DNA from: an uncultured delta proteobacterium
Lineage (GTDB): Bacteria > Desulfobacterota > Binatia > JACPRU01
Reading direction: 5' to 3'
Length of the DNA: 64,000 nt
Assembly: GCA_963745025.1 (NCBI GenBank)
Contig: CAVUWD010000006.1
Span: 416,001 to 480,000 of the forward strand
The translations under genes were made by a program, and so were the position numbers. Below, in pieces: positions 6,434 through 57,057 of this stretch (positions within the stretch are counted from its first letter, which is position 1; each line of letters opens with the position of its first letter). The notes beneath the pieces were generated by a model, which was not told the origin of the DNA, searched no databases, and saw only the letters and a program-made list of their open reading frames with translations.

Positions 6434-6526
6434 AGCTAACGGACTGCGGTTGAGCGGCCGGCGCCCACCGCCGCCCGGCCGTGACGAGCTGGTCGTGCGC
6501 CGGTCCGCTCCAACCGCGTGTTAGAC
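6434..6526 (-). mobile_element. Integron attC site (93 bp)
   Basis: Minus: R'' GTCTAAC, arm GCGGTTGGAGCGG (one extra base) ... arm CCGCTCAACCGC, R' GTTAGCT; imperfect palindrome. Confidence 0.88.
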
Positions 6527-6568
6527 CGCACGGTTGACCTGTGCATACGAGCGTGCATACCATATAAT

Positions 6569-6847
6569 GTGGTGGATTTCGAGTGGGATGAGGAGAAGGC
6601 GAAGGAGAACCTGGAGAAGCACGGCGTCGATTTTGCCGACGCGGTTACCGCGTTCGAAGACATGATGGCGCTGACTATGCCGGATCGTGCGTCGGAGGAG
6701 GAAGAGCGGTTCGTGACGCTTGGGACGGACGCACTCGAGCGCCTCCTGGTCATCGCGTACACGTGGCGCGAGGATCGGATACGTCTGATTTCCGCGCGGA
6801 AAGCGACGCGCCGCGAGCGGCGGCAGTACGAGGGCAAGCGAGTATGA
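6569..6847 (+). CDS. brnT: BrnT-family ribonuclease toxin
   Basis: 'FEWDEEKAKENLEKHGVDF', 'EEERFVTLG', 'IRLISARKATRRERRQY'; GTG start just after TATAAT (6563-6568). Confidence 0.92.
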   Translation: MVDFEWDEEKAKENLEKHGVDFADAVTAFEDMMALTMPDRASEEEERFVTLGTDALERLLVIAYTWREDRIRLISARKATRRERRQYEGKRV

Positions 6848-14040: not shown

Positions 14041-14340
14041 ATGGAGACACTGAAGAGAATCGACGACGCGGGTGAAAATGTGATCGCGGCGGTCCGCACC
14101 GTGCAGGGCTGGATCGCCTCGGCCGCCGAGACGGTCGGAGCGCCGATCGTACGGCGGATTCCCGACCTGCCGCTACCGGAGGCGCTGCGCCCCCCACGCG
14201 CGCGGGACGTCGTCGCGACGACGTTCGGGTTCTGGGAAGGCCTCGCGCGGGCGCAGAACGAATTCACGCTGCGCATTCTCGATGCCTTCGATCCGGCGGC
14301 GTACCGGGCGAAGGCCGCGCGCCATCCCAAGGCTGCTTGA
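14041..14340 (+). CDS. Small amphipathic helical protein, candidate phasin/lipid-inclusion protein
   Basis: RBS GGAGG, 99 aa, basic Ala/Lys tail; divergent from XRE next to phaEC. Confidence 0.6.
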   Translation: METLKRIDDAGENVIAAVRTVQGWIASAAETVGAPIVRRIPDLPLPEALRPPRARDVVATTFGFWEGLARAQNEFTLRILDAFDPAAYRAKAARHPKAA

Positions 14341-14447
14341 GCAGTCGTGATCGGCCGGGAGGGCACCCTCCCGGCCGATCACTTTCAACGGAGTCCGCGT
14401 CCGGATCTTGCCAGACTCCGCCCGCGGGGCGCGGTATAAGGCGGATC

Positions 14448-15926
14448 ATGGAGCTCGCCGACTCGGTCTGCTACCGCGCGATCGCCACGCGCGACGCGCG
14501 CTTCGACGGCCGCTTCTTCGTCGCCGTACGCACGACCGGGATCTACTGCCGGCCAATTTGCCCCGCTCGGACGCCGAAGCGCGAGAACGTCACGTTTTTC
14601 TCGTGCGCCGCAGCCGCCGAGGCCGCGGGGTTTCGGCCCTGTCTTCGCTGCCGCCCCGAGACGTCACCCGGCACACCGGCTTGGAACGGCACCTCGGCGG
14701 TCGTGTCGCGGGCGCTCCGCCTGATCGAAGACGGCGCGGCCGACGACGGCGGAAGCGAGACGCTTCCCGCCCAGGTCGGACTCGGCGAGCGTCAGCTTCG
14801 CCGCCTCTTCCAGAGGCATCTCGGTGCATCGCCTGCCGAGATCGCCCGGGCGCGGCGCCTTCATTTCGCCAAGACGCTGATCGACGAAACCGCGCTCGGA
14901 ATGACGGACGTCGCGATTTCCACGGGCTTCCGGAACATTCGCGAGCTCAATCATTCGATTCGCAAGACGTTCGGACGCTCGCCGCGCGAGCTTCGCCGGC
15001 AGCGAGCGGACGGGCGCGGGATCGCGGCAGCAAGCGCTCGAGGAGCGCTCACGCTGCGGCTCTCCTACCGCCCGCCGCTCGAATGGCGCGCGCTTCTCGA
15101 ATTCTTCCGCGAGCGCGCTACCCCCGGCGTAGAGGCCGTCGACGAGGAGAGCTATCGGCGAACGATCGTCTGGGGCGGCGTGCCGGGATGGATCGAGGTT
15201 TCGCCGGCCGAGCGCGGCACGCAGCTCGTTCTCCGCGTGGAGCTGTCGACCGTTCGCGGCCTCATCCAGCTCGCCGAGCGCGTGCGGCGGATGTTCGACC
15301 TCAATGCCGATCCGCTGCGCGTCGCCGCGGGGCTTTCCCGAGAGCCGTACCTCCGGAGGCTCGTCCGCGCACGACCCGGGTTGCGTGTACCCGGAGCGTG
15401 GGAGGGATTCGAGCTCGCCGTGCGCGCGATTCTCGGCCAACAGATTACGGTGCGGGCTGCGACGACGCTCGCCGGCCGCCTGGTCCAGCGCTTCGGCCGG
15501 TCCGTCGAGAGCTCCGTGCCGAGCCTCACCCATCTCTTCCCCGATCCGCAGACGCTCGCGAACGCCGACCTCACCGGACTCGGGCTCACGAGATCTCGCG
15601 CCGAGACGATCCGCGGCCTTGCCCGCGCCGTCGCCGCCGGCACACTGACGCTCGACGCTTCGCGCGGCCTCGAGGACGGAGTCGCGCGCCTCGCCGCGCT
15701 TCCCGGTATCGGCGAATGGACGGCCCAGTACGTCGCGCTGCGCGCCTTCGGCGAGCCCGATGCGTTTCCCGTCGGTGATCTCGGCCTCCGGCGCGCGCTG
15801 GCAACCGGCAACGGCATGCCATCGACGCGAGCGGTCGCCTTGATCGCCGAAGCGTGGCGGCCGTGGCGAGCGTACGCCGCCATTCACCTCTGGACGAGCG
15901 AGCCTGCGAAAGAGAAGCGATCGTGA
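14448..15926 (+). CDS. alkA: Ada-AlkA fusion (Ada Zn domain, AraC HTH, 3-methyladenine glycosylase II)
   Basis: 'TTGIYCRPICPA', 'GFRPCLRCRP', 'RAILGQQIT', HhH 'LPGIGEWTA', 'WRPWRAYA'. Confidence 0.93.
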   Translation: MELADSVCYRAIATRDARFDGRFFVAVRTTGIYCRPICPARTPKRENVTFFSCAAAAEAAGFRPCLRCRPETSPGTPAWNGTSAVVSRALRLIEDGAADDGGSETLPAQVGLGERQLRRLFQRHLGASPAEIARARRLHFAKTLIDETALGMTDVAISTGFRNIRELNHSIRKTFGRSPRELRRQRADGRGIAAASARGALTLRLSYRPPLEWRALLEFFRERATPGVEAVDEESYRRTIVWGGVPGWIEVSPAERGTQLVLRVELSTVRGLIQLAERVRRMFDLNADPLRVAAGLSREPYLRRLVRARPGLRVPGAWEGFELAVRAILGQQITVRAATTLAGRLVQRFGRSVESSVPSLTHLFPDPQTLANADLTGLGLTRSRAETIRGLARAVAAGTLTLDASRGLEDGVARLAALPGIGEWTAQYVALRAFGEPDAFPVGDLGLRRALATGNGMPSTRAVALIAEAWRPWRAYAAIHLWTSEPAKEKRS

Positions 15927-16474
15927 TCATCATCGAGACCGCCGAGCTCGCGTCGCCGATCGGAACCGTCGTGCTCGCCGTCCATGAGGGGTGTCTGTGC
16001 GCTCTCGGCTTCCACGACCACTGGCCACGACTCGAGCGGGCGCTGCGGCGGCGATTCCCTGGAGCCGAGCTCCGGCGGTCGGGCGATCCCGCGGGAACCG
16101 TCGGCCGATTGCGGGCGTACTTTCAGGGCCACTTTGCCGCGCTCGATTCCATCCCGCTCGATCTCGGCGGCACGCCGTTCCAGCAAAAGCTGTGGACACG
16201 ACTCTGCGCGATCCCGTGCGGCCAGACCGTCTCATATCGGGACCTCGCCACGGCGATCGGTGCGCCCACCGCCGTGCGCGCCGTCGGAGCTGCCAACGGT
16301 GCGAACCCGGTGTCGATCGTCGTCCCGTGCCACCGTGTTATCGGCGTCAACGGAAGTCTCACCGGCTACGGAGGCGGCATCGAACGCAAGCGGTGGTTGC
16401 TCGAACACGAGGGAGCGCTGGAGAAGACCGGGCGACGGGCTACAGGAAAGGCGTCGCGGAATCCCCTCCCATAG
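15923..16474 (+). CDS. ogt: Methylated-DNA-protein-cysteine methyltransferase
   Basis: 'GTPFQ', 'RAVGAANGANP', active site 'PCHRV'; GTGA overlap with alkA. Confidence 0.95.
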   Translation: MIIIETAELASPIGTVVLAVHEGCLCALGFHDHWPRLERALRRRFPGAELRRSGDPAGTVGRLRAYFQGHFAALDSIPLDLGGTPFQQKLWTRLCAIPCGQTVSYRDLATAIGAPTAVRAVGAANGANPVSIVVPCHRVIGVNGSLTGYGGGIERKRWLLEHEGALEKTGRRATGKASRNPLP

Positions 16475-21330: not shown

Positions 21331-21687
21331 AGAGGTTCTCCGGTGTCCAGTCTCCGGCGAGAAACATCGTGGCCGCTGTTGAGGACTAGCGACCGTCGTG
21401 TTGCCGGCGTACGGGTGACTTGTTAGGCGGAAACGCTTCTGACTGCTTCGATCACGGGAAGACTGCCGCGGTCCCCCGGCTCGAGGCTGAGCTCAGCTGC
21501 TACGTTCTGCGACGCGAACCGAATGCCTATCGGCGCTCGCCCACCTGCGCCGCAACAAGAAGATCGACGCCGACGACGAGGCTCTAACCAAGCGCTTGCT
21601 CTTTCGCCTCCCGGCCGAGTGGACCGAGATCGCGCCCGACACACGTTTGCGCGACCGGGCCGAGCGCCTGCTGTGGGTGGACGTTCC

Positions 21688-22257
21688 CTACCCCCGCGCG
21701 AGCCCGAGGTGGTGGAATGCCACGACGACCAGCGCATGGCTGATGACGCCCTGACGGATGAGGTCCGGAATCTCGTCGAGCGGGGCGAGCACCACCTCGC
21801 ACTCTTCCGTGCTGTCGAACGAGGCGACGCTTTTGAGCTCCACGTTGCGCGCCAAGAACGAGTGGCACCGGTTCGTCTGGATCGCGGGATTCGGATGGAT
21901 AACGCCGAGGGGCACCACGTCATCGCTGTCGTAGCCGGTCTCTTCCTGCATCTCGCGCCGCGCCGCCTCGAGCGGTGATACGTCCTCCGCATCCACCATC
22001 CCGCCTGGGACCTCGAGGGTGAACTGATCGATGCCGTGGCGGTACTGGCGCACCATCACGACGCGCTGGTCGGCAGTCAGCGGGACGATGTTCACCCAAT
22101 CGGACGAATCGAGGACGTAGAAGTCGTGCAGCTCACCGGTTCTCGGGGAGCGCCGACGATGCTCGGTGACGGAGAAGACGCGGCAGTCATACACCGCGGA
22201 GGCCTCGAGCGTTTCCCAAGGGAGAAGGTTTTGCGGCTTGCGAGTCATCGCGACCAC
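21688..22257 (-). CDS. NUDIX hydrolase (ADP-ribose pyrophosphatase-like)
   Basis: 'VRQYRH', Nudix box 'PGGMVD...AARREMQEETG'. Confidence 0.9.
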   Translation of the reverse strand: MVAMTRKPQNLLPWETLEASAVYDCRVFSVTEHRRRSPRTGELHDFYVLDSSDWVNIVPLTADQRVVMVRQYRHGIDQFTLEVPGGMVDAEDVSPLEAARREMQEETGYDSDDVVPLGVIHPNPAIQTNRCHSFLARNVELKSVASFDSTEECEVVLAPLDEIPDLIRQGVISHALVVVAFHHLGLARG

Positions 22258-22379
22258 CTCGTTGTCCGACGATAGCAGAGGCGGCTCGGACGATCAGCCA
22301 GAGACGCGCGAGCGTGCTGCGCCGTTTGCAAGCCCCCGTGCGCCGCGAGATCGATGAGCCTCACCTCCGCCTTCCGCCA

Positions 22380-22459
22380 GAGGCCGGTCAGGAAGCCGCT
22401 GGTGCCGGCGTCGCCGAAGCGTTTCGCTGCTCCTCGCCGATGCCGATGTTAGGTTTCAT
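22380..22459 (-). pseudogene. Internally deleted dps remnant
   Basis: RBS AAAGGAGAGG then MKPNIGIGEEQRNA (Dps-like N-term) joined out of frame to FGDAGTSGFLTGL (Dps-like helix D). Confidence 0.6.
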
Positions 22460-22489
22460 TCGTCCTCTCCTTTCGGGTTGCCCGCAGGG

Positions 22490-23224
22490 CTACGAAGCCC
22501 AAGCGCTCCGTGCGCGGGTGAGCAGCCCGTCGTCGCTCGAGCGGCGGATCTCGGCGGCGGTCTCGATTTCTCCCACGGCGGACCGAAGCGGCCAGATTCG
22601 GCAGGTGAGACGGTCACCAGCGCGCGCCTCGTCGAGGTACTCGAGGTCGTGGCGTCGCGCACCGAGCCCGTTGCCGGCCATGGCGCGGCGCGCCGCCTCG
22701 AGGTAATCGAAGTACTTGGCGTTGTTTACGTGATCGAGCGCGTCGAGGTCGGCGGCATCGACGACGAGCTCGACGGCGAATGCGTCGGCAGGAGCATCCG
22801 GAAGCTCCAGCGTCGGGCGCGGGAGCGGGGGCACGTCGCCTTCGGGCACGAACGCGCGCATCATCTCGTCGGGAATCCGCCGCGGCCGGCCCGACGCTGC
22901 GTCCACGTACACCCAGTCGGTGTGTGCGGTCAGCATCCCGACCAGTTCGCCCGGCACGCGCACCGTGTATTCGCGGCGCGACCGCACGCGGCGGAAGTCG
23001 GCGACCCACGTCGCGATCTCCAGCTCGACGCCGCGCGGAATCGCCATCGGGCACTCGATCGTGGAGCGGCGGATGACCCAAGCCGTAGCGTGCCCAGCGT
23101 ACCACTCCGGCGGATAGCCTGCGTCCGCCGAGGCCAGCGTCGCGGATTCCTCGAGCAGGCGCGCGTAAACGGCGAAGCCCGCCTGCGGCGGAAGCGAGCG
23201 ACGGAACGAGAATCGCCGCGCCAT
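22490..23224 (-). CDS. Acyl-ACP thioesterase (double hot-dog fold)
   Basis: 'WVIRR', 'TDWVYVD...GRPRRIP', 'DLDALDHVNNAKYFDYLE'. Confidence 0.82.
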   Translation of the reverse strand: MARRFSFRRSLPPQAGFAVYARLLEESATLASADAGYPPEWYAGHATAWVIRRSTIECPMAIPRGVELEIATWVADFRRVRSRREYTVRVPGELVGMLTAHTDWVYVDAASGRPRRIPDEMMRAFVPEGDVPPLPRPTLELPDAPADAFAVELVVDAADLDALDHVNNAKYFDYLEAARRAMAGNGLGARRHDLEYLDEARAGDRLTCRIWPLRSAVGEIETAAEIRRSSDDGLLTRARSAWAS

Positions 23225-23229
23225 CCCGC

Positions 23230-24429
23230 TCACGCCGACTCCTCGATCGCTCGTGCGAGAATCGCGAGGCCGCACTCGATCTCGGCTTCGCCGATCACAA
23301 GCGGAGGCGCCAGCCGGATCACCCGATCGCGGTGAAGCGTCCAGTTGAGGATCAGGCCGTGTGCGAACGACCGCTCGGTGATCCGGCGGGTGAAGCGCGC
23401 GTCGTCGAACTCCAGGCCGACAAGTAGGCCGACACCGCGGACGTCGACGAGGTGGCCCTGCCACGCGAGCGCGCGGAGACCCGCCTGGAGCATGGCGCCG
23501 AGCACCTCCGCCCGCTCCCAGAGCCGCCCGCGCTCGAGCACTTCGAGTGCCGCGAGACCCGCCGCGCACGAGACCGGGTGGCCGCCGAACGTCGTCACGT
23601 GAGCAAGCGGCGGATCGCTCGCCAGCGTCGCCAGGATCTCGGGCGCCGCCACGAACGCGCCGAGCGGCATGCCGCCACCGAGGGCCTTGGCCAGCACCAG
23701 CAGATCCGGCGTCACGTCGAAGCGCTCGAAGGCGAAGCGCCGTCCGGCGCGGCCGAAGCCGGTCAGCACCTCGTCGAGGACGAGCAAGGCGCCGACCTCC
23801 GTCGTCCGTCGACGAACCTCGCGAAGGTAGCCGGCCGGAGGGATGCGCACGCCGCCCTCGCCCTGCACGGGTTCGATCACCACGGCCGCCGTCTCGCGGT
23901 CGATGGCACCGAGCGCGCCGTGATCGCCGAACGGCAGCCGCTCGACCCGCGGCAGCAGCGGCTCAAACGGACCCCGGTAGAGCGCGTTGCCGCCGAGCGA
24001 CAGCGCGCCGAGCGTGTCCCCGTGAAAGGCACCCTCGAAGGCGATGAGCTTGGCCCGGCCCGTGTGTTTGCGCGCGGTCTTTAGCGCGCCCTCGATCGCC
24101 TCGGCGCCGCTGTTCACGAAGTAGACCATCGACAGCGGCGCGGGCAACAGCGCGGCGAGCCGCGCGGCCAGCCGCACCTGCGGCTCCTCGACGTACTCAC
24201 CGTAGACCATCGCGTGCAGGTAGCGGCCTGCCTGCTCCCGCACCGCCGCGACCACCTCCGGATGCCCGTGGCCGACGTTGGCGACGCCCATGCCGGAAAG
24301 AAAATCGAGGTATGTGCGGCCGTGACGGTCGGTCACGGTCGAGCCTTCCGCGTTCGCGATCTCGAGCCCGAGCGGGGCCGCCGAGGTCTGCGCCACGTGG
24401 CGGCGAAAGAGCACGTCGAGCTCGCTCAT
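23230..24429 (-). CDS. Class III PLP-dependent aminotransferase
   Basis: 'NSGAEAIE', 'FHGDT', 'EPVQGEGG', 'DEVLTGFGR', 'AKALGGG', 'TTFGGHP'. Confidence 0.93.
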   Translation of the reverse strand: MSELDVLFRRHVAQTSAAPLGLEIANAEGSTVTDRHGRTYLDFLSGMGVANVGHGHPEVVAAVREQAGRYLHAMVYGEYVEEPQVRLAARLAALLPAPLSMVYFVNSGAEAIEGALKTARKHTGRAKLIAFEGAFHGDTLGALSLGGNALYRGPFEPLLPRVERLPFGDHGALGAIDRETAAVVIEPVQGEGGVRIPPAGYLREVRRRTTEVGALLVLDEVLTGFGRAGRRFAFERFDVTPDLLVLAKALGGGMPLGAFVAAPEILATLASDPPLAHVTTFGGHPVSCAAGLAALEVLERGRLWERAEVLGAMLQAGLRALAWQGHLVDVRGVGLLVGLEFDDARFTRRITERSFAHGLILNWTLHRDRVIRLAPPLVIGEAEIECGLAILARAIEESA

Positions 24430-24902
24430 TCGCTCTCGAAGAGCCGGCGGGCCTGCGCCGTGCGCAGCCAGAGGATCGCGAGCAGCGGAAACACGAGATC
24501 CCAGATGTCGCCGCCGACGAGGAGTAGGCGGAGCTTGATGGCGATCGCCAGCGCGGGATCCTTGTGACCCGGCCCGATCGTGAAGTTGAGCACGGTGTAG
24601 AGGACCGTCGCCGCGAGCGACAGCGCCGACAGCGAAAGAACGGCCATCCGAGCGCGCGGCTCGAAGCGGCGCAGGCGCTGGGACGAAGTCAGGAGCAGCG
24701 TATAGAAGAGAACCTGCGGGATCCAGTAGAGAGTGCGGCTGCTGTCGGCGTCCGTGCCCCCAACTGCCACCAGCGCCGAAACGTAGGCGAGCGCGCTCGC
24801 GGTGACCTTGATCGCCGAAAACACGACGAGCAACAGCGCCAGGAAAAGCAGCTGCGCACGCAGTTCTTCGTCTGCGTGCTCCGCTTCCGGCGAAGGCTTC
24901 AC
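24426..24902 (-). CDS. Uncharacterised ~4-TM membrane protein
   Basis: GTGA overlap with luxC-like stop and ATGA overlap with aminotransferase start; four hydrophobic segments. Confidence 0.7.
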   Translation of the reverse strand: MKPSPEAEHADEELRAQLLFLALLLVVFSAIKVTASALAYVSALVAVGGTDADSSRTLYWIPQVLFYTLLLTSSQRLRRFEPRARMAVLSLSALSLAATVLYTVLNFTIGPGHKDPALAIAIKLRLLLVGGDIWDLVFPLLAILWLRTAQARRLFESE

Positions 24903-26185
24903 CTCTGCTTCCCTAGGATGATTCCCGCCATCGGATCCAGTCCTCCCTGCCGCCAGTCGAGACCCGGGGCCTGCATGTGTCCGAGCGCTGCGATCCGGGG
25001 AACGCCGAGCGCTTCGAGCGATGCGCCGGTCTCGGCATCGGGCCATGGACCCATACCGACACATTCGACACGCGGCAACCACTCGCCGACCGCGTGGCGG
25101 AGGTCTCCGATCGTTTCGAGCGGGCGCACGAAGATCGTCCGGTGGAGCGGGCTCGGCCGGAAGCCGGCGGTCGGATCGTCGAGAATCGTCCAGCTCCTGC
25201 CGGCGCGGAGCGATACGCCCCCGCCGCCGAGCTCGCGCCATTCGTACTCGTCACGCAGCCGTCGAATGGCGACGGCGTCACCCTCGCCAAGCACGCCGCG
25301 TGGCCAGCGACATTCGGCCTCTTCCAGAGCTTCGGCCAGACACTCGACGAACTCACGACGCCGCGACGGCTCGGCTCCGACCACGTAGAGCGTCTGCGGC
25401 GATAGGCAGCCGAGCTGGTCGTAGAGCGCCACGTCGACCGCCGCGGCCGCGGCCAGCGACTGGACGTCGCTTGCCCGATCGAGACGAACGAGAGCGATGC
25501 TCAGCTTGTGGCCGAAGCCAACGAACCGCCCGCTTCTTCTCGCCGCGAGCGCGGCGACCGCTACGTCCGAGCCGTAGGCGACGAGCGAATCGACGCCGCG
25601 CACGAGCGCTTCCTCGCCGCCGCCGGATCCTCCTTCCCACCAGCTGACCGCGAGCGCCGAGGCGAGCGATGGAGCGATCGCACCGAGCGCTTCGGCGAAG
25701 AGCGCGGTGAGAAGCGGCTCCCCGGCCGCGGTCTTCACCACGCAAGAGGCCCCCGCCGTCAGCGCGAGCGCCGTCTTGAGGAGCGCGACACCGGGGATGT
25801 TTCCCGCCGCGACGATTCCGAAGAGGCCCACGACCTGCTTTGCCGGCCTCGCGATCGCCGCGAGAGTCTGCGCGTCCGCGAGCGGTGCGAAGACGCGCGG
25901 CAGAGTCTCCTCGATCATCGCCCGCGAGAAGCCGGTCACGTCGGGCAGCGCCCCGAGCGCGCGAAGCCGCAATCGATCGTCGGGATCGAGAAACCGTCGA
26001 GCCGCAGCGGCCACCGCAGCCGCGCGATCGCCGGGTTCTCCGTGCGCCACACGACTGCGCAACCGTGCGAGCAGCTCCCGCATCTCATCGGCGGAAAGCT
26101 CTGCGACCGCTAGCGCGAGCGTGCCGAATGCGGCCGGCCGCGTGCGGACCCGCTCCAGCGCGGGCAGATGAAAGGCGCGCTCCAT
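24899..26185 (-). CDS. LuxC-like acyl-CoA/acyl-protein reductase
   Basis: 'AAGNIPG', 'AYGSD', 'FGHKLS', catalytic Cys 'YDQLGCLSPQ', 'GVPRIAALGHMQ.P...W...G'. Confidence 0.88.
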   Translation of the reverse strand: MERAFHLPALERVRTRPAAFGTLALAVAELSADEMRELLARLRSRVAHGEPGDRAAAVAAAARRFLDPDDRLRLRALGALPDVTGFSRAMIEETLPRVFAPLADAQTLAAIARPAKQVVGLFGIVAAGNIPGVALLKTALALTAGASCVVKTAAGEPLLTALFAEALGAIAPSLASALAVSWWEGGSGGGEEALVRGVDSLVAYGSDVAVAALAARRSGRFVGFGHKLSIALVRLDRASDVQSLAAAAAVDVALYDQLGCLSPQTLYVVGAEPSRRREFVECLAEALEEAECRWPRGVLGEGDAVAIRRLRDEYEWRELGGGGVSLRAGRSWTILDDPTAGFRPSPLHRTIFVRPLETIGDLRHAVGEWLPRVECVGMGPWPDAETGASLEALGVPRIAALGHMQAPGLDWRQGGLDPMAGIILGKQR

Positions 26186-26191
26186 CGAGCG

Positions 26192-27253
26192 CTACGCCAC
26201 TTGCTCGAGGAGCAGCGCGCAGCCTCGCGCCTCGGCGCCGCTCGCGCGGCCGACGACTTCGAACCCCTCGCCGACCTCGATGCCCACGTCCTCGGTTTGG
26301 AGAGCGAGCACCGAGCCGACGTTGGCGAGATCGAAGTGGCGGAGAAGACCTCGCTCGCCGCGCGGCACAGGCTCGAACGTCTGCGGTGACATCACCCGCG
26401 TGCGCGCCCACTCCGGCGCGAGCTTCGCGCGGTCTCGCTTGCGGCCGGCGAAGTGGTTCTGGATCGAATCGTCGTAGAACTGCGAGCACATCTCGGTCAT
26501 GCCGTACTCGTTCGCCACGTAGTAGCCGGGCACGCCGAAGTAGTCCCAGAACGCGCGCAGTAGGCCGTTGCGCGACAGCGAACGGCTCTTCCCTTTGGTT
26601 CCTCCGGTATCGACGATCCGCGACCCATAGGGCAGACGAAAGCGAGCGCTGCTCGCCTGGCAGCGGTCGATGAAGCGGATGAACGCATACGTGAGGCCGA
26701 TCAAGAGAACCGGCTCGCGCGTCGGCTCGCACTCACGGAGCCGCCGTTCGAGCGCCTCGGCCTGAACCTCGCCGCGGACGACGAAGCATTCGGGCGGGCC
26801 GGCGGCAAACGATTCCGCGAGCCACTCGATCATCTGGCAGAGCGAGGACTGCGGCTGCTCGGCGAGCGTCGGAGCGAGGACCAGGAAATGCGGCCGCGCA
26901 CCATCGGGAAGAACACAGCGCGCGAAGTGAGCCAGCGCGGCGGCTCGGTAGATCGAGGGATCAGGCACGCGATGGCGACCTCGCTGCCTGGCACCTTCGG
27001 TCGTGCCGCTGGTCACGAACACACTCCCCTCGGGGAGACCGCTGACGACGAGCTCCGCTCGCTTGAACGCGGACACGGGCACAGCCGGGATCTCGGTCCA
27101 GTCCGTGACGTTCGCCGGCGTCCCGCCGCGGCGATCGCAGAAGCGCCGGTAGGGCACATTCCGCTCGTACTGGAAGCGGAAGAGCGCGAGCGCGAGGTCC
27201 GGAAAGCGGGCCGGATCGGGCGCGCCGATGAACTCACGCACCGCGGAAAACAT
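26192..27253 (-). CDS. LuxE-like acyl-protein synthetase
   Basis: 'LFRFQY..N..YR.FC', 'TSGTT', 'DTGGTKG', 'EYGMTEMCSQ', 'DLAN', C-term 'GRASGAEARGC'. Confidence 0.88.
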   Translation of the reverse strand: MFSAVREFIGAPDPARFPDLALALFRFQYERNVPYRRFCDRRGGTPANVTDWTEIPAVPVSAFKRAELVVSGLPEGSVFVTSGTTEGARQRGRHRVPDPSIYRAAALAHFARCVLPDGARPHFLVLAPTLAEQPQSSLCQMIEWLAESFAAGPPECFVVRGEVQAEALERRLRECEPTREPVLLIGLTYAFIRFIDRCQASSARFRLPYGSRIVDTGGTKGKSRSLSRNGLLRAFWDYFGVPGYYVANEYGMTEMCSQFYDDSIQNHFAGRKRDRAKLAPEWARTRVMSPQTFEPVPRGERGLLRHFDLANVGSVLALQTEDVGIEVGEGFEVVGRASGAEARGCALLLEQVA

Positions 27254-27525
27254 CCCTCCCGATATGCGGAGCGGCTCGATTCGAAGTCAAGGAGGTGCCA
27301 CGCGCGCGACGGGGAAACCACGGCCGCAGGAGGAGCATCGAATCCGGCGTGAGGAGCCTTTCCGAAAACGGACCATCCACCTGGCGCAAGTCGATCTTCG
27401 ACGTCAGGATCGCCGGATGCCGCGCTGGCTTGGAAGGACCGATCTCGGCCGGGTCACGCTGGCCGCGAAGCGCTACCGGAGCCGGCGTCCCCTGCCCACG
27501 CCGATGCACCTCGGGCGTGAGAGGC

Positions 27526-30500
27526 TCACGCCCGTACCCACCGCTCGTAGATCTTCGGCAGCTCGGTCGGCAGCGACGAGACGTCCTCGATCACCAGGTA
27601 CCGCGAGGTCTCGCACATCTGGCGGAGATAATCGTGTCCCGTCTTGTCGACGGTGATGCAGAAGGGCGTGATACCGGCGGCCTCGGCATTCCTGGAGGGC
27701 GACCATCGTGTCCTGGATGCCGTACGCGTTGCGAGCGGCGATCGTTCCCGTAGTCGAAGTCCTGCGGAAAGCCATCGGAGAGGAGGAAGAGGTGCTTGGA
27801 GCGCGTCGTCAGGTTCGCCATCTTCGCCCGCGCGTGGCGAAGCGCCGGCCCCATGCGCGTCGAGCGCCTCGGCTCGATGCCACCGATGCGGCCGCGCACG
27901 CGAGCGGTCAAGCGCCTCCTGGAAACGCTTCACGAGATAGAACTCGACGTTGTCCCTCCCCTGTCCGGAGAAGCCGTAGACGGCGTAGCGATCGCCGAGC
28001 TCTTCGAGCGCCTCGGCCATGATCACCAGCGCCTCCTTCGTCACGTCGATGATGCGCCGCTCGCTCCCGCGCGTGCCGCACGCGGTGGCGGGACGCCCCG
28101 CGGGCTCGGCAGACTTCGGCTGCAGCGGCTCGTCGGTCGACGCGCTCATGTCGAGGAGAAAGAGCGTCGCCACGTCGCGCTCCTCGCGCGACGCGCGACG
28201 TAGAGGCGGGTCGAGGGCGCACGGCGCGCGCGGAGCTCGACGCGCGCTTCGACGACCGCGTTCAGATCGAAGTCCTCGCCGTCCTCGAGGCCGCGCACCT
28301 TGCGATAGCGTCTCGGGGCGAAGCCGCTGGAACTGGCGGCGAACTTCGGGAAGCAGGTCGGCGTAGCGGGCGAGCGTGTCCTGGAAGAACTCGCCCGCAT
28401 CGCCCGCCGAGGTGGATTTCCTCGAGATGGCACCAGCGGCTGCGGTAGTCGCGGATCTGGTAGTCCCACTCGTCGTAGTCGAATCCCGCGCGATCGGCCA
28501 CACCGCGCCGCCCGCGGCGCGTGCCGTCGTGGATCGACACCTCGCTCTCGCCTTCGTCTCGCCCTGGAGACTGCGGCAGCCGCAGGTCCCGCGCGAAGAT
28601 GCCGGCGCTCTCCACGGTCTCGGTCGAGCGCCCGACCTTGAGCACCGCGCCGGCCTCGAGCAGGCGCTTCAGCTCGTCGCCGGAAAGCGGCGTACCCGGT
28701 CCCTCTTCGTCGCTCTCCTCGACGGCCTTCGGCTCGAGATCGAGCACCTCCGTCGGCGGAGGCTTGTCTGCCGGCTCGTCGCCTTCCTCCGGCTCCGGGT
28801 CGAGAGCCGCGGCGCCGATCACCTTCTCGAACAAGAGCTCCTCGTATGTCGTCGCCGCACCGAAGCCCGATATCGCAATCGAGTCGGCGAGCCGTTCGCG
28901 AATCTGGATGGCGACCGCCAGCGCGTCATCGACGGTGGCGTCCGGGCTCCGGAGCACCGCGGCGACGAAGCCGACGAGCTCCGCCGGCAGCTCCTCGGTC
29001 GATAGCTCGGCCGGCGAAACGCCGGCGCCGATCAGGAAGAGAACGAGCTCGGCGCTTCGTCGCGCGCGCGGCACCCGCCGGGCGAGACGTTCGCTGATTC
29101 GGCCGAGCTCGGCGGCGTGGCCGCGATAGCTTCGGCGCATTCGACAATCGATGCGCGCGCCCTCGCAGGCGGCGAACAGCGGGATCAACGGATCGGCGTC
29201 GGGCACGGCCTCGAACAGATCGCCGAGCGTATCGCCGTTCACCAGGGCGGCGACCACGGATGCGAGCGGAGGCGGCAGCCGCGTCGACACCCGCCCGAGC
29301 GAGACGTCGTACGTGCCGTAGAGCAGCCGGCCCACGCCGCCCGCGGTCGCGAGCTTGAGGATCGAGAAGTTGTCCTCCCAAGACTGGAAGAAATCCACGT
29401 TGTCTGGCAGCGCGAGGCTCGCACCCTCTAGGCTCTCGCGGTCGAGAAATGCGCGCAGCGAGACGCCGTCCACGCCGCGGAGGGTCAGACTCTCGCCCGA
29501 GAGCATCCGCGCGTAGGAGCGGAGCACGCCGTGGATCTCTTCGAGACGAACCGCCGCGGAGTTCTCGCGCAAGAACCGAAGCGCCGTACGCGACTCGAGC
29601 GCGAAGTAGGCTCGCCCGGCGTCGAGATTGGCTTCGGCAAGCGCTTCCCCACGCTCGATCCAGCGCGGCAGCCGGCGCGGGCCCGCCTGTTCGAGCGCGC
29701 GCGGCAACGAGCGGACGAGCGGAACGACGCAGAGCGGAAGCCGAGCGCCGCTCTCGGCCACGCGCTCGAGGATCGCGGAGCGCGACGTCTCGGGAATCGA
29801 GCGCACGATCGCCTCGAGGAGCGGCACGAGCGCGAGCACCGCCTCTGCGTCGACCGCGGCCGGAACGAGCGCGCGGAGGAGCGGCGACCGTGCCGACGGA
29901 TCGATGCGAGCGAGCTCTGGCGGCAAGCCGGCGAAGAGGCTCGCCGCGGCGCGCGGCGCCCGCGGCGCGGCCGCCGCGCAGAGCTCGAAGAGGTTTGCTC
30001 GCTCCGCGGCCGACAGCAGCGCGATGCCGTCCGGCATCTTCTGGAAGAATCCTTGGCCGAGCTCGCGACCGACCTGCACCGCGGTGCCGAGCGTGGCCCA
30101 CCGCCGGATCTCTTCGTTGGACAGCACCGGCAGCACCGAGGCACCCGACGAAAAGAACGCTGCGGCCAAGAACTCCCCGCGCCAGCCGCTTCCGGAGGCG
30201 AGGCGCATGCCAGCCGCGGCCCATTCCTCGAGCCGCGCGCGCGCCTTTTCGTGAAGCCCCGGCAGCGCCGCGCCGCTGCCCTCGAGGAAGAGCGCCGCGA
30301 GCTTTCGCGACAGTCCCTGCACCGAGCCGGCAAGTGTGAGCCAGTGCGCGAGCAGCGGCCGGCTGCAGGACGCGATCGCCACGGGATCCAGACGCAGGAA
30401 CGCGGCGGCGGCCTCGCGATTGGCGAGCGCCCGCGAGGCGATGTCGACCGCTAGCTTCCCCCAGAGGGCGAAGCGCTCGCGGTCCATTCGTGCACGCGCG

Positions 30501-30685
30501 TGCGGTGCCCGTAGCGCATACGCCTGCGCCAGTGCGAGGCTCGTCTCGGCGAGCGCGTCGCCGAAATGAACGATCTCGCGCTGCTCCGCCTCGGGCAGGC
30601 GGCGAAACTTCGCGAGCGCCTCCGCACCGCCTTCCGCGCGCGCGAGGTGCGGGCTCCGCAGCCACTCGGCGCGCGACGGGCTCAT
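27526..30685 (-). pseudogene. Large NorD/CbbO-like vWA protein, frameshifted six times in its 3' ~900 nt (possibly sequencing error)
   Basis: ATGA overlap with CbbQ stop; 'YDEWDYQIRDYR..WC', 'EDGEDFDLNAVV', MIDAS 'LLDMSAST', 'TRMG.ALRH', 'LLSDGFPQD', 'YGIQDT' spread over three frames. Confidence 0.85.
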
Positions 30686-31485
30686 GGAAATACGGTGGAA
30701 CAGAGCTCGTCGATCGCGCGCTCGGTCTCGGGGTCGTCCGACAGCGCCCGGGTCACCGCAGCCGCGCACGCCGCTCGGGCCGATACGCCCCGGCGCATGA
30801 GCCGCGCGGCGTAGATCAAGAGCCGCGTGCTCACCCCCTCCTCGAGGCCGCTCGCCTTCAGATTTCGCACCTTCTCGCCGAGCGCGGCGAGCTCGAGCGC
30901 CACGTCGGCGGTGATGCCGCTCTCGTGGGCGATGATCTCGGCCTCCTTGTCGCGCGGCGGATAGTTGAACTCGATCGCTACGAAGCGCTGGCGCGTCGAT
31001 GGCTTCAGATCCTTCAGCACGCTCTGGTAGCCGGGGTTGTAGGAGATCACGAGCAGGAAATCGCGGTGCGCCTGGAGGATCTCGCCGCGCTTGTCGATGG
31101 GCAGAATCCGCCGGTGATCGGTGAGCGGATGGATCAACACGGTCGTGTCCTTGCGCGCCTCGACGACCTCGTCGAGATAGCAGACCGCGCCGCTGCGCAC
31201 CGCCTGCGTGAGCGGCCCGTCGATCCACACCGTGTCGTCGCCCTTGATGAGATATCGGCCGACGAGGTCGCTGCCCGTCAGATCCTCGTGACAGGCGACG
31301 GTGATCAGGCCCGGCACGCCGTCCGCCGCTTCGCCGTGAAAGCGGCGAGTGACGTGCTCGATGAACCGCGTCTTGCCGCAGCCCGTCGGCCCCTTCAGTA
31401 ACACCGGCAGGCGGCACTCGAAGGCGGCGCGAAAGAGCTCGATCTCCTCGCCGATCGGAAGGTAGTAGGGAATGTGGCGGGTCAT
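30682..31485 (-). CDS. CbbQ/NirQ/NorQ-family AAA+ ATPase
   Basis: '[10 protein letters not shown]', '[12 protein letters not shown]', '[12 protein letters not shown]', 'SYNPGYQ', 'STRLLIYA'. Confidence 0.95.
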
Positions 31486-31494
31486 GCCTTCGGA

Positions 31495-31563
31495 GGCTAC
31501 CGGCTTCCGGCTACCGGCTTCCGGAAGAGACTTCGCGGCGTCTCTTTGCGGTAGTCGGTAGCC
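31495..31563. repeat. Heptamer-built palindromic element
   Basis: (GGCTACC GGCTTCC)x2 AAGAGAC ... GTCTCTT CGGTAGT CGGTAGC. Confidence 0.65.
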
Positions 31564-55154: not shown

Positions 55155-55228
55155 GCGCCCGTAGCTCAACGGATCAGAGCATCAGACTTCGGATCTGAGG
55201 GTTGGGGGTTCGAATCCCTCCGGGCGCG
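55155..55228 (+). tRNA. tRNA-Arg(TCG); no encoded CCA; integration site
   Basis: Acceptor GCGCCCG/CGGGCGC, anticodon stem TCAGA-CTTCGGA-TCTGA, T-loop GGTTCGAATCC. Confidence 0.95.
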
Positions 55229-56558
55229 CTGACTTTTGCTCGTCTTTCTCGTTGTTCGACGGCGCTTCGGTTCCAGAAGTGATGCCACTGATGCCTAAGT
55301 CGCCGCCGGTTCCGGTGGCGGCGAGCGTGCCCCCTGGCTCGGGCGTGTCGAGAAGATCGACACAGCGATCATCTCCGCTCGGTAGGCAGTGAGCGTACCA
55401 GAGCAGCGTGGTCGCCGGGTTTGGGGTACCGTCCGGCTTGAAGTGGCCGAGCACCTTCGCCACGTCAGTAAGCGGCGTCCGCTTCTTGAGCAGGATCGAC
55501 GCCACGGTGTGGCGGAGATCGTAGGGCGAATGCGAGACCGGAAGGCCTGCCGCCTTCAGCACCCGCTTGAAGGCCTTGGCTGCGTTCGCTTGATTGAGCG
55601 GCGTTGCCGCCTCAGAGAAGAGCAGATACTCCCGGACGCCGCGCCAGCCTTCCCGCAGCGTCTCAGCCTTTGCCCACGTCACATACCGCCGCAGCCGCTC
55701 GGCGAGAAGCCGGGACATCGGGACTCTTCGACAGATGCCGGTCTTCGTCGGCGAATCCGGGAGGTCTACGTGCTTGGGCTTCTCTTTCGGATCGAGTGAG
55801 CGGAAGGTGACTTCCTGGTACGAGCCATTCACCAGGATGTCGCCGTTCACGAAATCGACATCTGCTGGACGGAGGCCGATAGCTTCTGCTGGTCGAAGCG
55901 CCGCCCTGCCCATGATCCAAAAATAGGCCGCGAGCGGCTGCCGCTCGGTCTCATCGGCGCTGCGAAGAAGCACGTCGAGTTCCGCCTGGCTGAATGGCCG
56001 CACCTTCGCGAGCTTCTCCGATTGCTTCATCCGATCGGGTCGGCGGCGGCCACGGGTCCGCACCTGGAACGCGGGATTGGTGGTCAGGATCTCGTCCTCC
56101 ACCGCCTCGGAGAGAATGACGGACAGCGCCGCACGCGCAAGCCGAACCGTGTTCCTCCCCTTCCCAGACCGTCGCAGCGCTGCAAGTCGATCCTTGATCA
56201 CCGTGCGCTTGATGTCGCGCAGGGAAACCGTTCCGAGGTAGGGGTGAATGTAAAGCCGGTACGAGTCGAGATACGTGGCGAGAGTGCGGGGCGCGATTTC
56301 GCCTTCGGCCCGCTCTCGCCAGACTACTTGGTACTCATCAAGCGTCAGATCTCCGGAAAGGCGTGCGAGCGTCGAGCGACGCCTGCGACCTGGATGGGAA
56401 TAGTGTTCAAGCTCGAGCTCTGCCTTCCTTCGCCTCGCATCGGCTTCGGATCGGAACGTCTCGCGCCCCCGCCTCGGCCCAAGAAGGTCACGCGCGTCAA
56501 GGAGCCAGCGAGGCGCTCCGCGTCTTCCCCGCTTTCCGAGCTTCCTGATCGTTGCCAC
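55182..56558 (-). CDS. int: Tyrosine integrase
   Basis: R 'LRPAEA', K 'TKTG', 'YDLRHT', 'LGH', Y 'TTLLWYAH'; stop codon lies inside the tRNA. Confidence 0.93.
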   Translation of the reverse strand: MATIRKLGKRGRRGAPRWLLDARDLLGPRRGRETFRSEADARRRKAELELEHYSHPGRRRRSTLARLSGDLTLDEYQVVWRERAEGEIAPRTLATYLDSYRLYIHPYLGTVSLRDIKRTVIKDRLAALRRSGKGRNTVRLARAALSVILSEAVEDEILTTNPAFQVRTRGRRRPDRMKQSEKLAKVRPFSQAELDVLLRSADETERQPLAAYFWIMGRAALRPAEAIGLRPADVDFVNGDILVNGSYQEVTFRSLDPKEKPKHVDLPDSPTKTGICRRVPMSRLLAERLRRYVTWAKAETLREGWRGVREYLLFSEAATPLNQANAAKAFKRVLKAAGLPVSHSPYDLRHTVASILLKKRTPLTDVAKVLGHFKPDGTPNPATTLLWYAHCLPSGDDRCVDLLDTPEPGGTLAATGTGGDLGISGITSGTEAPSNNEKDEQKSARPEGFEPPTLRSEV

Positions 56559-56561
56559 GCC

Positions 56562-56903
56562 CTACCCTACCGGTCGTCTCGACCTTGCTGGATCTGCCGC
56601 CAATTCGCTCAGCGCCCGCGCCGTGAACCTAACGTACCTCTCGCCTAGGCGGACCGACGGGAGTTCGCCCCGTCGTGCGAGTTCGTACACGTAGGCTCTC
56701 GGAACTTTCAGGTATTCCGCCGCCTGCTCGGCCGTCAGAAGGTGGCCGTTATCCGCTGGATCGTCGTCGCTTCGATTGTTCAGCCGAATCCAGAGAAGCA
56801 CCTTGATACGCTCGATCTCGCCGAGGAGTGCGGGCATGCTCTCAAGCGGCACCTTGAAAACGAGTCGCTCAAGATCGGCAAGGATAGCGGCCTGATCACT
56901 CAC
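56562..56903 (-). CDS. Excisionase-like HTH_17 protein
   Basis: 'LLTAEQAAEYLKV....VYELARRGELPSVRLG.RYVRF' adjacent to integrase. Confidence 0.85.
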   Translation of the reverse strand: MSDQAAILADLERLVFKVPLESMPALLGEIERIKVLLWIRLNNRSDDDPADNGHLLTAEQAAEYLKVPRAYVYELARRGELPSVRLGERYVRFTARALSELAADPARSRRPVG

Positions 56904-57057
56904 AGCTGCCTCACCTCGGGTTGTCGCTCCTGCTGGCTCCAAATCGTAACCGCTCTTCCGCGTAACCGACCGATCTCGCCGCCTCGGCGGTGTCGATGGC
57001 CGATGCCGTGGCCAGCGTCGTAACCGTTTTGATCGTGATGATCATCAGCAACTCGAC

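Follow-up and report, generated by a model that had tools for sequence, protein, structure and literature searches.

Positions 22,490 to 27,253 of a 64,000-nt stretch of DNA (hereafter the window) carry a compact five-gene operon with homologues of the bacterial luminescence proteins LuxE and LuxC. The window lies on contig CAVUWD010000006.1 (GCA_963745025.1) and belongs to a metagenome-assembled genome of an uncultured member of the Binatia. This assembly, labelled G000, totals 5.65 Mb over 20 contigs, with a completeness of 92.65% and a contamination of 7.6%. The operon encodes a LuxE-like acid activator, a LuxC-like thioester reductase, a small hydrophobic protein, a class III aminotransferase dependent on pyridoxal phosphate (PLP), and a thioesterase (Table 1). 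An earlier note, made from the sequence of the window, had proposed that the five genes form a fatty-amine pathway. The LuxE-like, LuxC-like and aminotransferase genes (the trio) are conserved across phyla, and they probably make 7-aminomethyl-7-deazaguanine (preQ1) from 7-carboxy-7-deazaguanine (CDG), replacing QueC and QueF. The analysis shows the linkage of the genes, the retention of catalytic residues and a mutual exclusion with QueC and QueF; we infer the substrate and every step of this route.

Table 1. Coordinates of the operon and flanking features in the window
Feature	Position	Strand	Description
LuxE-like gene	27253..26192	-	353 aa; adenylate-forming acid activator; PF04443
LuxC-like gene	26185..24899	-	428 aa; thioester reductase; PF05893
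Small hydrophobic protein gene	24902..24426	-	158 aa, GTG start; family-specific insert between LuxC and aminotransferase
Class III (ArgD-like) PLP aminotransferase gene	24429..23230	-	399 aa; PF00202
Thioesterase gene, double hot-dog, acyl-ACP (acyl carrier protein) thioesterase family	23224..22490	-	244 aa; PF01643 and PF20791
Untranslated stretch 5′ of the LuxE-like gene	27254..27525	-	272 nt
CbbQ/NorQ-type AAA gene	30682-31500		

The operon and its conserved trio

Five co-directional open reading frames (ORFs) on the minus strand fill positions 27253..22490. Intergenic gaps read off the sequence are 6, -4 (GTGA), -4 (ATGA) and 5 nt; the packing described earlier was reproduced in position, strand and spacing. 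The untranslated stretch upstream of the LuxE-like gene presumably holds the operon promoter. A promoter and terminator scan of positions 21500-28000 returned no promoter-like (sigma-70-like) site and one terminator-like site, which is intragenic; shuffled sequences gave more. No Rfam family, preQ1 riboswitches included, matched positions 27200-27600 at E-values up to 1, and an Rfam scan of the whole window returned one tRNA only (55155-55228). Sixty-six ORFs of the window, chosen heuristically, were scanned against Pfam, and none matched luciferase (PF00296) or LuxD, in agreement with the earlier statement that luxAB and luxD are absent from the window. No acyl carrier protein or lipid-synthesis gene was found in the operon by Pfam scan.

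The LuxE-like protein matches PF04443 at 59.1 bits (cut-off 24.9) and fails the NCBIfam LuxE equivalog NF052244, with 60.4 bits against a cut-off of 550. In the PDB it matches 7xc6_E (E-value 1.8e-15), and its C-terminal RGC aligns with the KGC acyl-cysteine motif of that chain. The lysine of the TGGxK motif is also retained. Residues K220, R336 and C345 are unchanged in all 13 homologues compared. Roles of the catalytic cysteine and the acyl-cysteine motif follow those given for Photobacterium phosphoreum LuxC and LuxE in the available part of PMC9157457.

The LuxC-like protein matches PF05893 at 153.7 bits (cut-off 21) and fails the NCBIfam LuxC equivalog NF052251 (56.1 bits against a cut-off of 750). 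The catalytic cysteine is intact, as had been reported: in P. phosphoreum LuxC (7xc6_A) it is Cys296 by the numbering of PMC9157457, the residue aligned with it is Cys260, and all 15 aligned homologues have cysteine at this position. An AlphaFold model built from 15 sequences (mean predicted local distance difference test score 92.1) has 7xc6_A as its best structural match, with Z 41.4, a root-mean-square deviation of 2.7 and 414 residues aligned; other aldehyde dehydrogenases reach Z of about 32. The model aligns to chain residues 13-457 only, with about 18% identity in the structural alignment. After the matched part, 28 residues remain in the LuxC-like protein versus 59 in LuxC, as counted in the sequence alignment. 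Residues 460-488 of LuxC complete a hydrophobic cleft of more than 40 Å for myristate, and Ile472, Leu478 and Phe483 lie near the cleft exit (PMC9157457, available part). In the model comparison the LuxC-like protein has no counterpart to this C-terminal element. Its Glu374, invariant in 15 of 15 homologues, occupies the position aligned with LuxC Gln402, and a Q402E mutant of the fatty-acid LuxC had less than 10% activity (PMC9157457, same part). Both points are hints rather than tests, because the alignment is of low identity and lies beside a gap.

The aminotransferase matches PF00202 at 333.9 bits. As an earlier caveat on ArgD had cautioned, its best NCBIfam matches are ArgD models, yet both fall below cut-off: NF002874 at 373.3 versus 457 and TIGR00707 at 346.7 versus 410.05. 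By NCBIfam it resembles enzymes of amino-acid semialdehydes, namely ArgD, LysJ and putrescine aminotransferase. A separate true ArgD was found in five of five relatives (476-503 bits), in which the trio-linked paralogue scores 338-386 bits. For a quick maximum-likelihood tree of 39 sequences, branch support was taken from the Shimodaira-Hasegawa-like approximate likelihood ratio test (SH-aLRT). The tree unites the trio-linked enzymes of Binatia with those of Methylomirabilota (SH-aLRT 99), and true ArgDs form a clade of their own apart from them (SH-aLRT 100). Trio-linked aminotransferases from Verrucomicrobia, Myxococcales and Spirochaetales records form a third clade (SH-aLRT 98). On its sequence, the aminotransferase is a paralogue distinct from ArgD.

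G000 itself holds at least 11 other class III aminotransferase genes, and none of the nine intact paralogues scanned reaches the ArgD cut-off. The only argB-adjacent aminotransferase of the genome (C14:122016-123154) is 58% identical to a same-genus ArgD and is split over three frames. Thus the existence of a separate argD, raised earlier, was confirmed in the relatives but in G000 comes down to this one broken candidate. Canonical argC and argB lie elsewhere in G000, and argB carries two in-frame stops in this assembly. The argB-argD pair is broken at C14:121129-123154 (locus L144, outside the window), with two in-frame TGA codons in argB. It could be a degraded copy, an assembly error or a contaminant contig.

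A LuxC homologue is present in 34 of 41 related genomes, and the full trio in 17 of 20 Binatia loci fetched around LuxC matches. A wider scan took one genome per species and covered 80 loci; several of those without the full trio are short contigs. Sixty-two of these loci carry the full trio and 67 carry LuxC with the aminotransferase. Twelve of the 80 have the order aminotransferase-LuxE-LuxC, among them the Methylomirabilota loci and loci whose records name Myxococcales, Spirochaetales or Verrucomicrobia. A single reading frame encodes LuxC and the aminotransferase in all three loci examined from Binatia family f6 (L051, L161 and L162); one f9 locus has a separate gene for each. Linkage that survives reordering, together with the fusion, argues that the aldehyde from the LuxC-like enzyme would pass to the aminotransferase. 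The conserved unit is the LuxE-like, LuxC-like and aminotransferase genes, a predicted relay in which a carboxylate is reduced to an aldehyde and this is aminated to a primary amine. The earlier logic of acid activation followed by aldehyde and amine formation is upheld by trio linkage across gene orders, by the f6 fusions and by the separation of the aminotransferase from ArgD.

Other f6 genomes contain open frames of 1134-1234 codons, which suggests that the fusion is general in that family. A Pfam scan of 71 flanking ORFs at 11 loci from several phyla found no accessory gene common to all trio loci. Alpha/beta hydrolase, Nudix and PNPOx-like proteins recur beside the trio only in Binatia-type loci. 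In family f1, a Nudix hydrolase gene (NudE-like, 70 bits; 21688-22257 in the window) follows the operon. Nudix genes with a zinc ribbon lie a few kilobases upstream of the trio in other Binatia-type loci (L061 and L085).

The two remaining operon genes are lineage-specific additions outside the conserved unit. No Pfam or NCBIfam family matches the 158-aa membrane protein. A Kyte-Doolittle scan gave three clear hydrophobic stretches and one weaker, so the four transmembrane segments proposed earlier are plausible, not proven: three are clear but the fourth is weaker. Language-model similarity to YbjO/DUF2593 (score 0.92) is a lead only. Homologues of this protein were seen in family f1 loci alone, in 4 of the 20 from Binatia and 3 of the 80 from the wider scan. 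The thioesterase exceeds the cut-offs for both of its hot-dog domains, PF01643 (32.5 bits, cut-off 23.7) and PF20791 (30.1 bits, cut-off 21). Linkage of its gene to the trio is limited to the window, G002, G003 and G006, and 2 of the 20 fetched Binatia loci contain it. In G005 a homologue lies on another contig than the trio, and none was found in same-genus G001 (82% complete), G007 (79% complete) or G013 (a complete genome). Of the five genes, the trio thus stays linked, in 17 of 20 and 62 of 80 loci, but these two genes do not stay with it. The roles once assigned to them are accordingly not supported: the thioesterase as a stand-in for LuxD, given its restricted linkage, and the membrane protein as an exporter, given its confinement to family f1. 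An editing function for the thioesterase is a guess.

Two related genera (G006 and G003) carry a 327-aa ORF between, and overlapping, the aminotransferase and thioesterase genes (L034:10658-11641 and L035:10638-11621). It is absent from the window operon. It has metallophosphoesterase-like motifs, read from the translation rather than from a family search.

Distribution of LuxC relative to QueC and QueF

Queuosine synthesis is treated as solved, and QueC and QueF are taken as the sole means of reaching preQ1 from CDG. If the trio replaces these two enzymes, genomes should carry one or the other and keep the remaining queuosine pathway, and this prediction was tested. The tallies take in six genomes flagged as unpublished (G086, G188, G192, G258, G268 and G299), and no conclusion rests on them.

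Canonical QueC (above its cut-off) and strong QueF (110-124 bits) are confined to five of the 41 relatives, namely G008, G016, G024, G040 and G032. All five are among the seven genomes with no LuxC match; the other two are G004 (65% complete) and G026. Other QueF matches among the relatives are partial (21-27.5 bits), and that of G009 is nominally over the 27.3-bit cut-off. Across 201 Binatia genomes at least 90% complete, 162 have LuxC only, 30 have QueF only, none has both and 9 have neither. Binatia QueF is limited to f2 (13 of 16 genomes), f14 (13 of 13), f16 (3 of 3) and one f8 genome. Family f8 carries LuxC in 30 of 31 genomes, and its sole LuxC-negative genome, G204, is its sole QueF-positive one. 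G204 has a canonical QueC (201 bits). No LuxE match was found in G204, a weak negative, as the LuxE model was silent in all 14 control genomes.

The Myxococcota-labelled class holding locus L116 (record title Myxococcales) gave a similar tally. Its 151 genomes include 147 with LuxC, one with QueF and none with both, and the QueF-positive genome (G340) is one of the four that are LuxC-negative. QueF was found in none of five further LuxC-bearing genomes of other phyla. In the Methylomirabilota (121 genomes), LuxC and QueF co-occur in 3, LuxC alone is found in 14, QueF alone in 97 and neither in 7. QueF is absent from 14 of 17 LuxC-positive genomes versus 7 of 104 LuxC-negative genomes. The 12 Methylomirabilota genomes with the closest LuxC matches (E-value 1e-134 or lower) all lack QueF, and the aminotransferase-LuxE-LuxC loci belong here. 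The trio thus occurs almost only in bacteria without two standard queuosine genes, and its product is therefore probably preQ1 rather than a fatty amine.

The rest of the pathway is largely kept. Tgt is over cut-off in 39 of the 41 relatives, and a PTPS/QueD-type protein was found in all 41. In G000, queA (422 bits) adjoins tgt (458.7 bits). FolE of G000 is encoded about 4 kb from a radical S-adenosylmethionine (SAM) protein whose best models are all QueE (59.5 bits); of all G000 proteins it also comes closest to the trio-adjacent QueE of Verrucomicrobia. A YhhQ-type precursor transporter was looked for in G000 and not found. QueG (385 bits) is encoded directly upstream of the trio in seven Methylomirabilota loci; given their close relationship, these amount to a single lineage. 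QueE (284.7 bits) is encoded directly upstream of the trio in Verrucomicrobia locus L124. The gap left in the pathway, from the carboxylate of CDG to the aminomethyl group of preQ1, is exactly the chemistry of the trio.

A candidate route to preQ1 and its alternatives

In the proposed route, the LuxE-like enzyme would adenylate CDG, the product of QueE, and load the acyl group onto its own C-terminal cysteine. Cys260 of the LuxC-like enzyme would take over the acyl group, and reduction with NAD(P)H would release 7-formyl-7-deazaguanine. The aminotransferase would convert this aldehyde to preQ1. Tgt and QueA would then use preQ1 for queuosine in tRNA, and the nitrile preQ0 would be skipped. On balance, most Binatia, the Methylomirabilales-type NC10 bacteria and the Myxococcota-labelled class seem to make preQ1 by such a nitrile-free LuxE/LuxC/aminotransferase route, in which QueC, QueF and preQ0 would be dispensable.

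The route would share its start (CDG) and its end (preQ1) with QueC and QueF, along with ATP-dependent activation of the 7-carboxylate (PMC13740343, available part). In contrast, the trio enzymes are non-homologous to QueC and QueF, and their proposed intermediate is an aldehyde rather than an amide and a nitrile. Nitrogen would come from an amino acid via PLP instead of from ammonia, and two reducing equivalents would be used versus the four of QueF. A 2026 review of QueF, in its available part, names 7-formyl-7-deazaguanine only where QueF mutants release it by hydrolysis (PMC13740343).

LuxC-LuxE of luminous bacteria (P. phosphoreum, PDB 7XC6) is likewise a two-protein machine that turns an acid into an aldehyde, and the TGGxK lysine, the C-terminal cysteine motif and the catalytic cysteine are shared. 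Unlike it, the Binatia pair has no luxA, luxB or luxD nearby, is distant in structure-based identity, and has a LuxC-like protein that lacks the C-terminal cleft and oligomerisation element. The trio also includes an aminotransferase, and its substrate is likely a deazapurine acid, not myristate. The same three-step logic is found in ArgB-ArgC-ArgD and LysZ-LysY-LysJ, in which a carboxylate is activated, reduced to a semialdehyde and transaminated by an ArgD-family enzyme. Those pathways differ in activating through a kinase and an acyl phosphate and in using a reductase like glyceraldehyde-3-phosphate dehydrogenase.

Reduction of a thioester to an aldehyde followed by transamination is also known from pigment clusters. 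TabE shares a similarity cluster with LuxC, and TabE and TabA serve the biosynthesis of tambjamine BE-18591 (bioRxiv 10.1101/2025.08.11.669332, available part). TamH is a fused transaminase and thioester reductase (PMC9594044, available part), and PigE, whose NCBIfam model NF053554 was matched in the scan of the operon, is a further case. Natural fusions thus occur in these systems as in Binatia f6. They act, however, on fatty acyl groups bound to a carrier protein or coenzyme A and belong to pigment clusters, whereas the trio has neither carrier nor cluster and is near-universal in its classes. LuxC and LuxE homologues outside lux operons are described as uncharacterised members of flagellin glycosylation islands (PMC7874193 and PMC4875605, available parts). 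Full-text searches, with most subscription journals outside their reach, found no publication on a route from CDG through an aldehyde to preQ1, or linking LuxC or LuxE to queuosine.

A fatty-amine pathway, in which the thioesterase frees a fatty acid, LuxE and LuxC turn it into the aldehyde, the aminotransferase makes a long-chain amine and the membrane protein handles or exports it, is improbable. LuxE and LuxC of luminous bacteria do act on myristic acid (PMC9157457, available part), and LuxC itself is the closest structure to the LuxC-like model at Z 41.4. In Streptomyces the LuxC-like TabE and the transaminase TabA make dodecylamine (bioRxiv 10.1101/2025.08.11.669332, available part). The thioesterase is over both acyl-ACP domain cut-offs, and its gene starts 5 nt after that of the aminotransferase. 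However, neither the thioesterase nor the membrane protein is conserved with the trio; no thioesterase was found in G001, and that of G005 is unlinked. The trio is single-copy in 162 of 201 Binatia and excludes QueF, a pattern not expected of a lipid pathway. Scores on the NCBIfam LuxE and LuxC equivalogs reach about one tenth of their cut-offs, the C-terminal cleft element has no counterpart, and an invariant glutamate stands where Q402E nearly inactivated the fatty-acid LuxC. The operon also lacks an acyl carrier protein or lipid-synthesis gene. The trio behaves as a housekeeping unit that excludes QueC and QueF; CDG rather than a fatty acid is thus indicated as the acid, and the fatty-acid substrate named in the earlier note is not supported. 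Still less probable, and largely refuted, is that the aminotransferase is the genome's ArgD or an unrelated chance neighbour of LuxE-LuxC. Acetylornithine transaminase models are its best NCBIfam matches, no intact paralogue in G000 exceeds the ArgD cut-off and the argB-adjacent candidate is split over three frames. Yet its scores are below both ArgD cut-offs, the tree places it in a separate clade, all five relatives have an ArgD of their own, and linkage to LuxC in 67 of 80 loci is joined by in-frame fusions.

The trio might instead act on another small housekeeping carboxylate, such as an amino-acid or cofactor intermediate; the exclusion of QueC and QueF would then reflect lineage history, with queuosine precursors salvaged. 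This is unlikely, though less so than a fatty-amine pathway. The trio alone is conserved while its neighbours vary by phylum, no que gene lies near the Binatia trios, and the aminotransferase resembles enzymes of amino-acid semialdehydes (ArgD, LysJ and putrescine aminotransferase). Neither LuxC nor QueF was found in 9 of 201 Binatia and 7 of 121 Methylomirabilota, and a bacterium can therefore live with neither. The exclusion also rests on few independent lineage switches. Against this, it recurs in three groups and at the level of single genomes (G204 and G340). Genes for making CDG (FolE, QueD-like and QueE-like) and for using preQ1 (Tgt and QueA) are kept, and it is the two between them that are missing. 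QueG or QueE adjoins the trio in two other phyla, and G000 has no YhhQ-type transporter for salvage.

Several observations weigh against the preQ1 route. Allowing for relatedness, the exclusion rests on a few switches (f2, f14, f16 and G204 in the Binatia; G340; and clades of Methylomirabilota). Three Methylomirabilota genomes carry both LuxC and QueF: in G213 the LuxC-like match is a weak tandem pair (29% identity), and for G259 and G262 the fetched stretch shows LuxE-LuxC but no aminotransferase, although the contig of G259 is only 3 kb long. In G000 the QueE-like (59.5 bits) and QueD-like (51.9 bits) proteins fall below their NCBIfam cut-offs, and this 92.65% complete assembly yielded no QueH and no QueG above the cut-off. 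Searches by tblastn of the 6-8 kb trio flanks in 20 Binatia loci gave no match to QueE, QueG, Tgt, QueA, QueD or FolE. No preQ1 riboswitch was found in the window or at nine other loci, where two tRNAs were the only hits. The acyl-ACP-type thioesterase 5 nt downstream of the aminotransferase gene better fits a lipid substrate. G000 also encodes a divergent QueC-family protein (C2:152327-152938; 78 bits in Pfam and 50 in NCBIfam versus a cut-off of 150), in whose translation the SGGxDS loop and a C-terminal cluster of cysteines can be recognised. Similar QueC-like paralogues occur in f1 and f8. Because one of them coexists with a canonical QueC in G204, the divergent protein is probably not the QueC missing from the pathway.

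The divergent QueC-family gene (L143:3765-4979, minus strand) lies beside genes for a pteridine-reductase-like short-chain dehydrogenase/reductase, a methyltransferase and a B12-binding radical SAM protein. A Methylomirabilota subgroup (L164, L165 and L166, from G262, G259 and G285) has the LuxE-LuxC pair with no aminotransferase in the fetched stretch, and QueF in two of the three genomes. This subgroup may represent a different use of the reductase pair.

Surroundings of the operon and implications

Upstream of the operon, about 3 kb of the window (27526-30680) holds long ORFs with no Pfam or NCBIfam match. One of them, a 325-aa ORF at 27526-28503, has counterparts in family f1 that are 56-61% identical. 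The CbbQ/NorQ-type AAA gene follows (Table 1). Positions 14337-16474 encode a fusion of an Ada zinc finger, an AraC domain and an AlkA glycosylase, then an O6-methylguanine methyltransferase; these genes look like an adaptive-response pair. Positions 6518-6847 encode a BrnT-type ribonuclease toxin of a type II toxin-antitoxin pair (103.8 bits). At the far end, an ORF called here as a phage-type integrase (region 55155-56942) overlaps at its 3′ end with the tRNA gene at 55155-55228, and an HTH_17 excisionase-like gene follows. The G+C content falls to 0.59-0.62 beyond 58 kb of the window. The stretch from 55155 onward to 64000 is probably an integrated element.

On present evidence the window operon should not be reported as a fatty-amine pathway. 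If the preQ1 route proposed for the trio is correct, automated annotation wrongly labels large and mostly uncultured groups as queuosine auxotrophs, and hundreds of LuxC, LuxE and 'ArgD' genes are mislabelled as lipid or arginine enzymes. Enzymology would gain a carboxylic-acid reductase for a heteroaromatic acid. The route would also explain why preQ0-dependent processes may be missing in these lineages.

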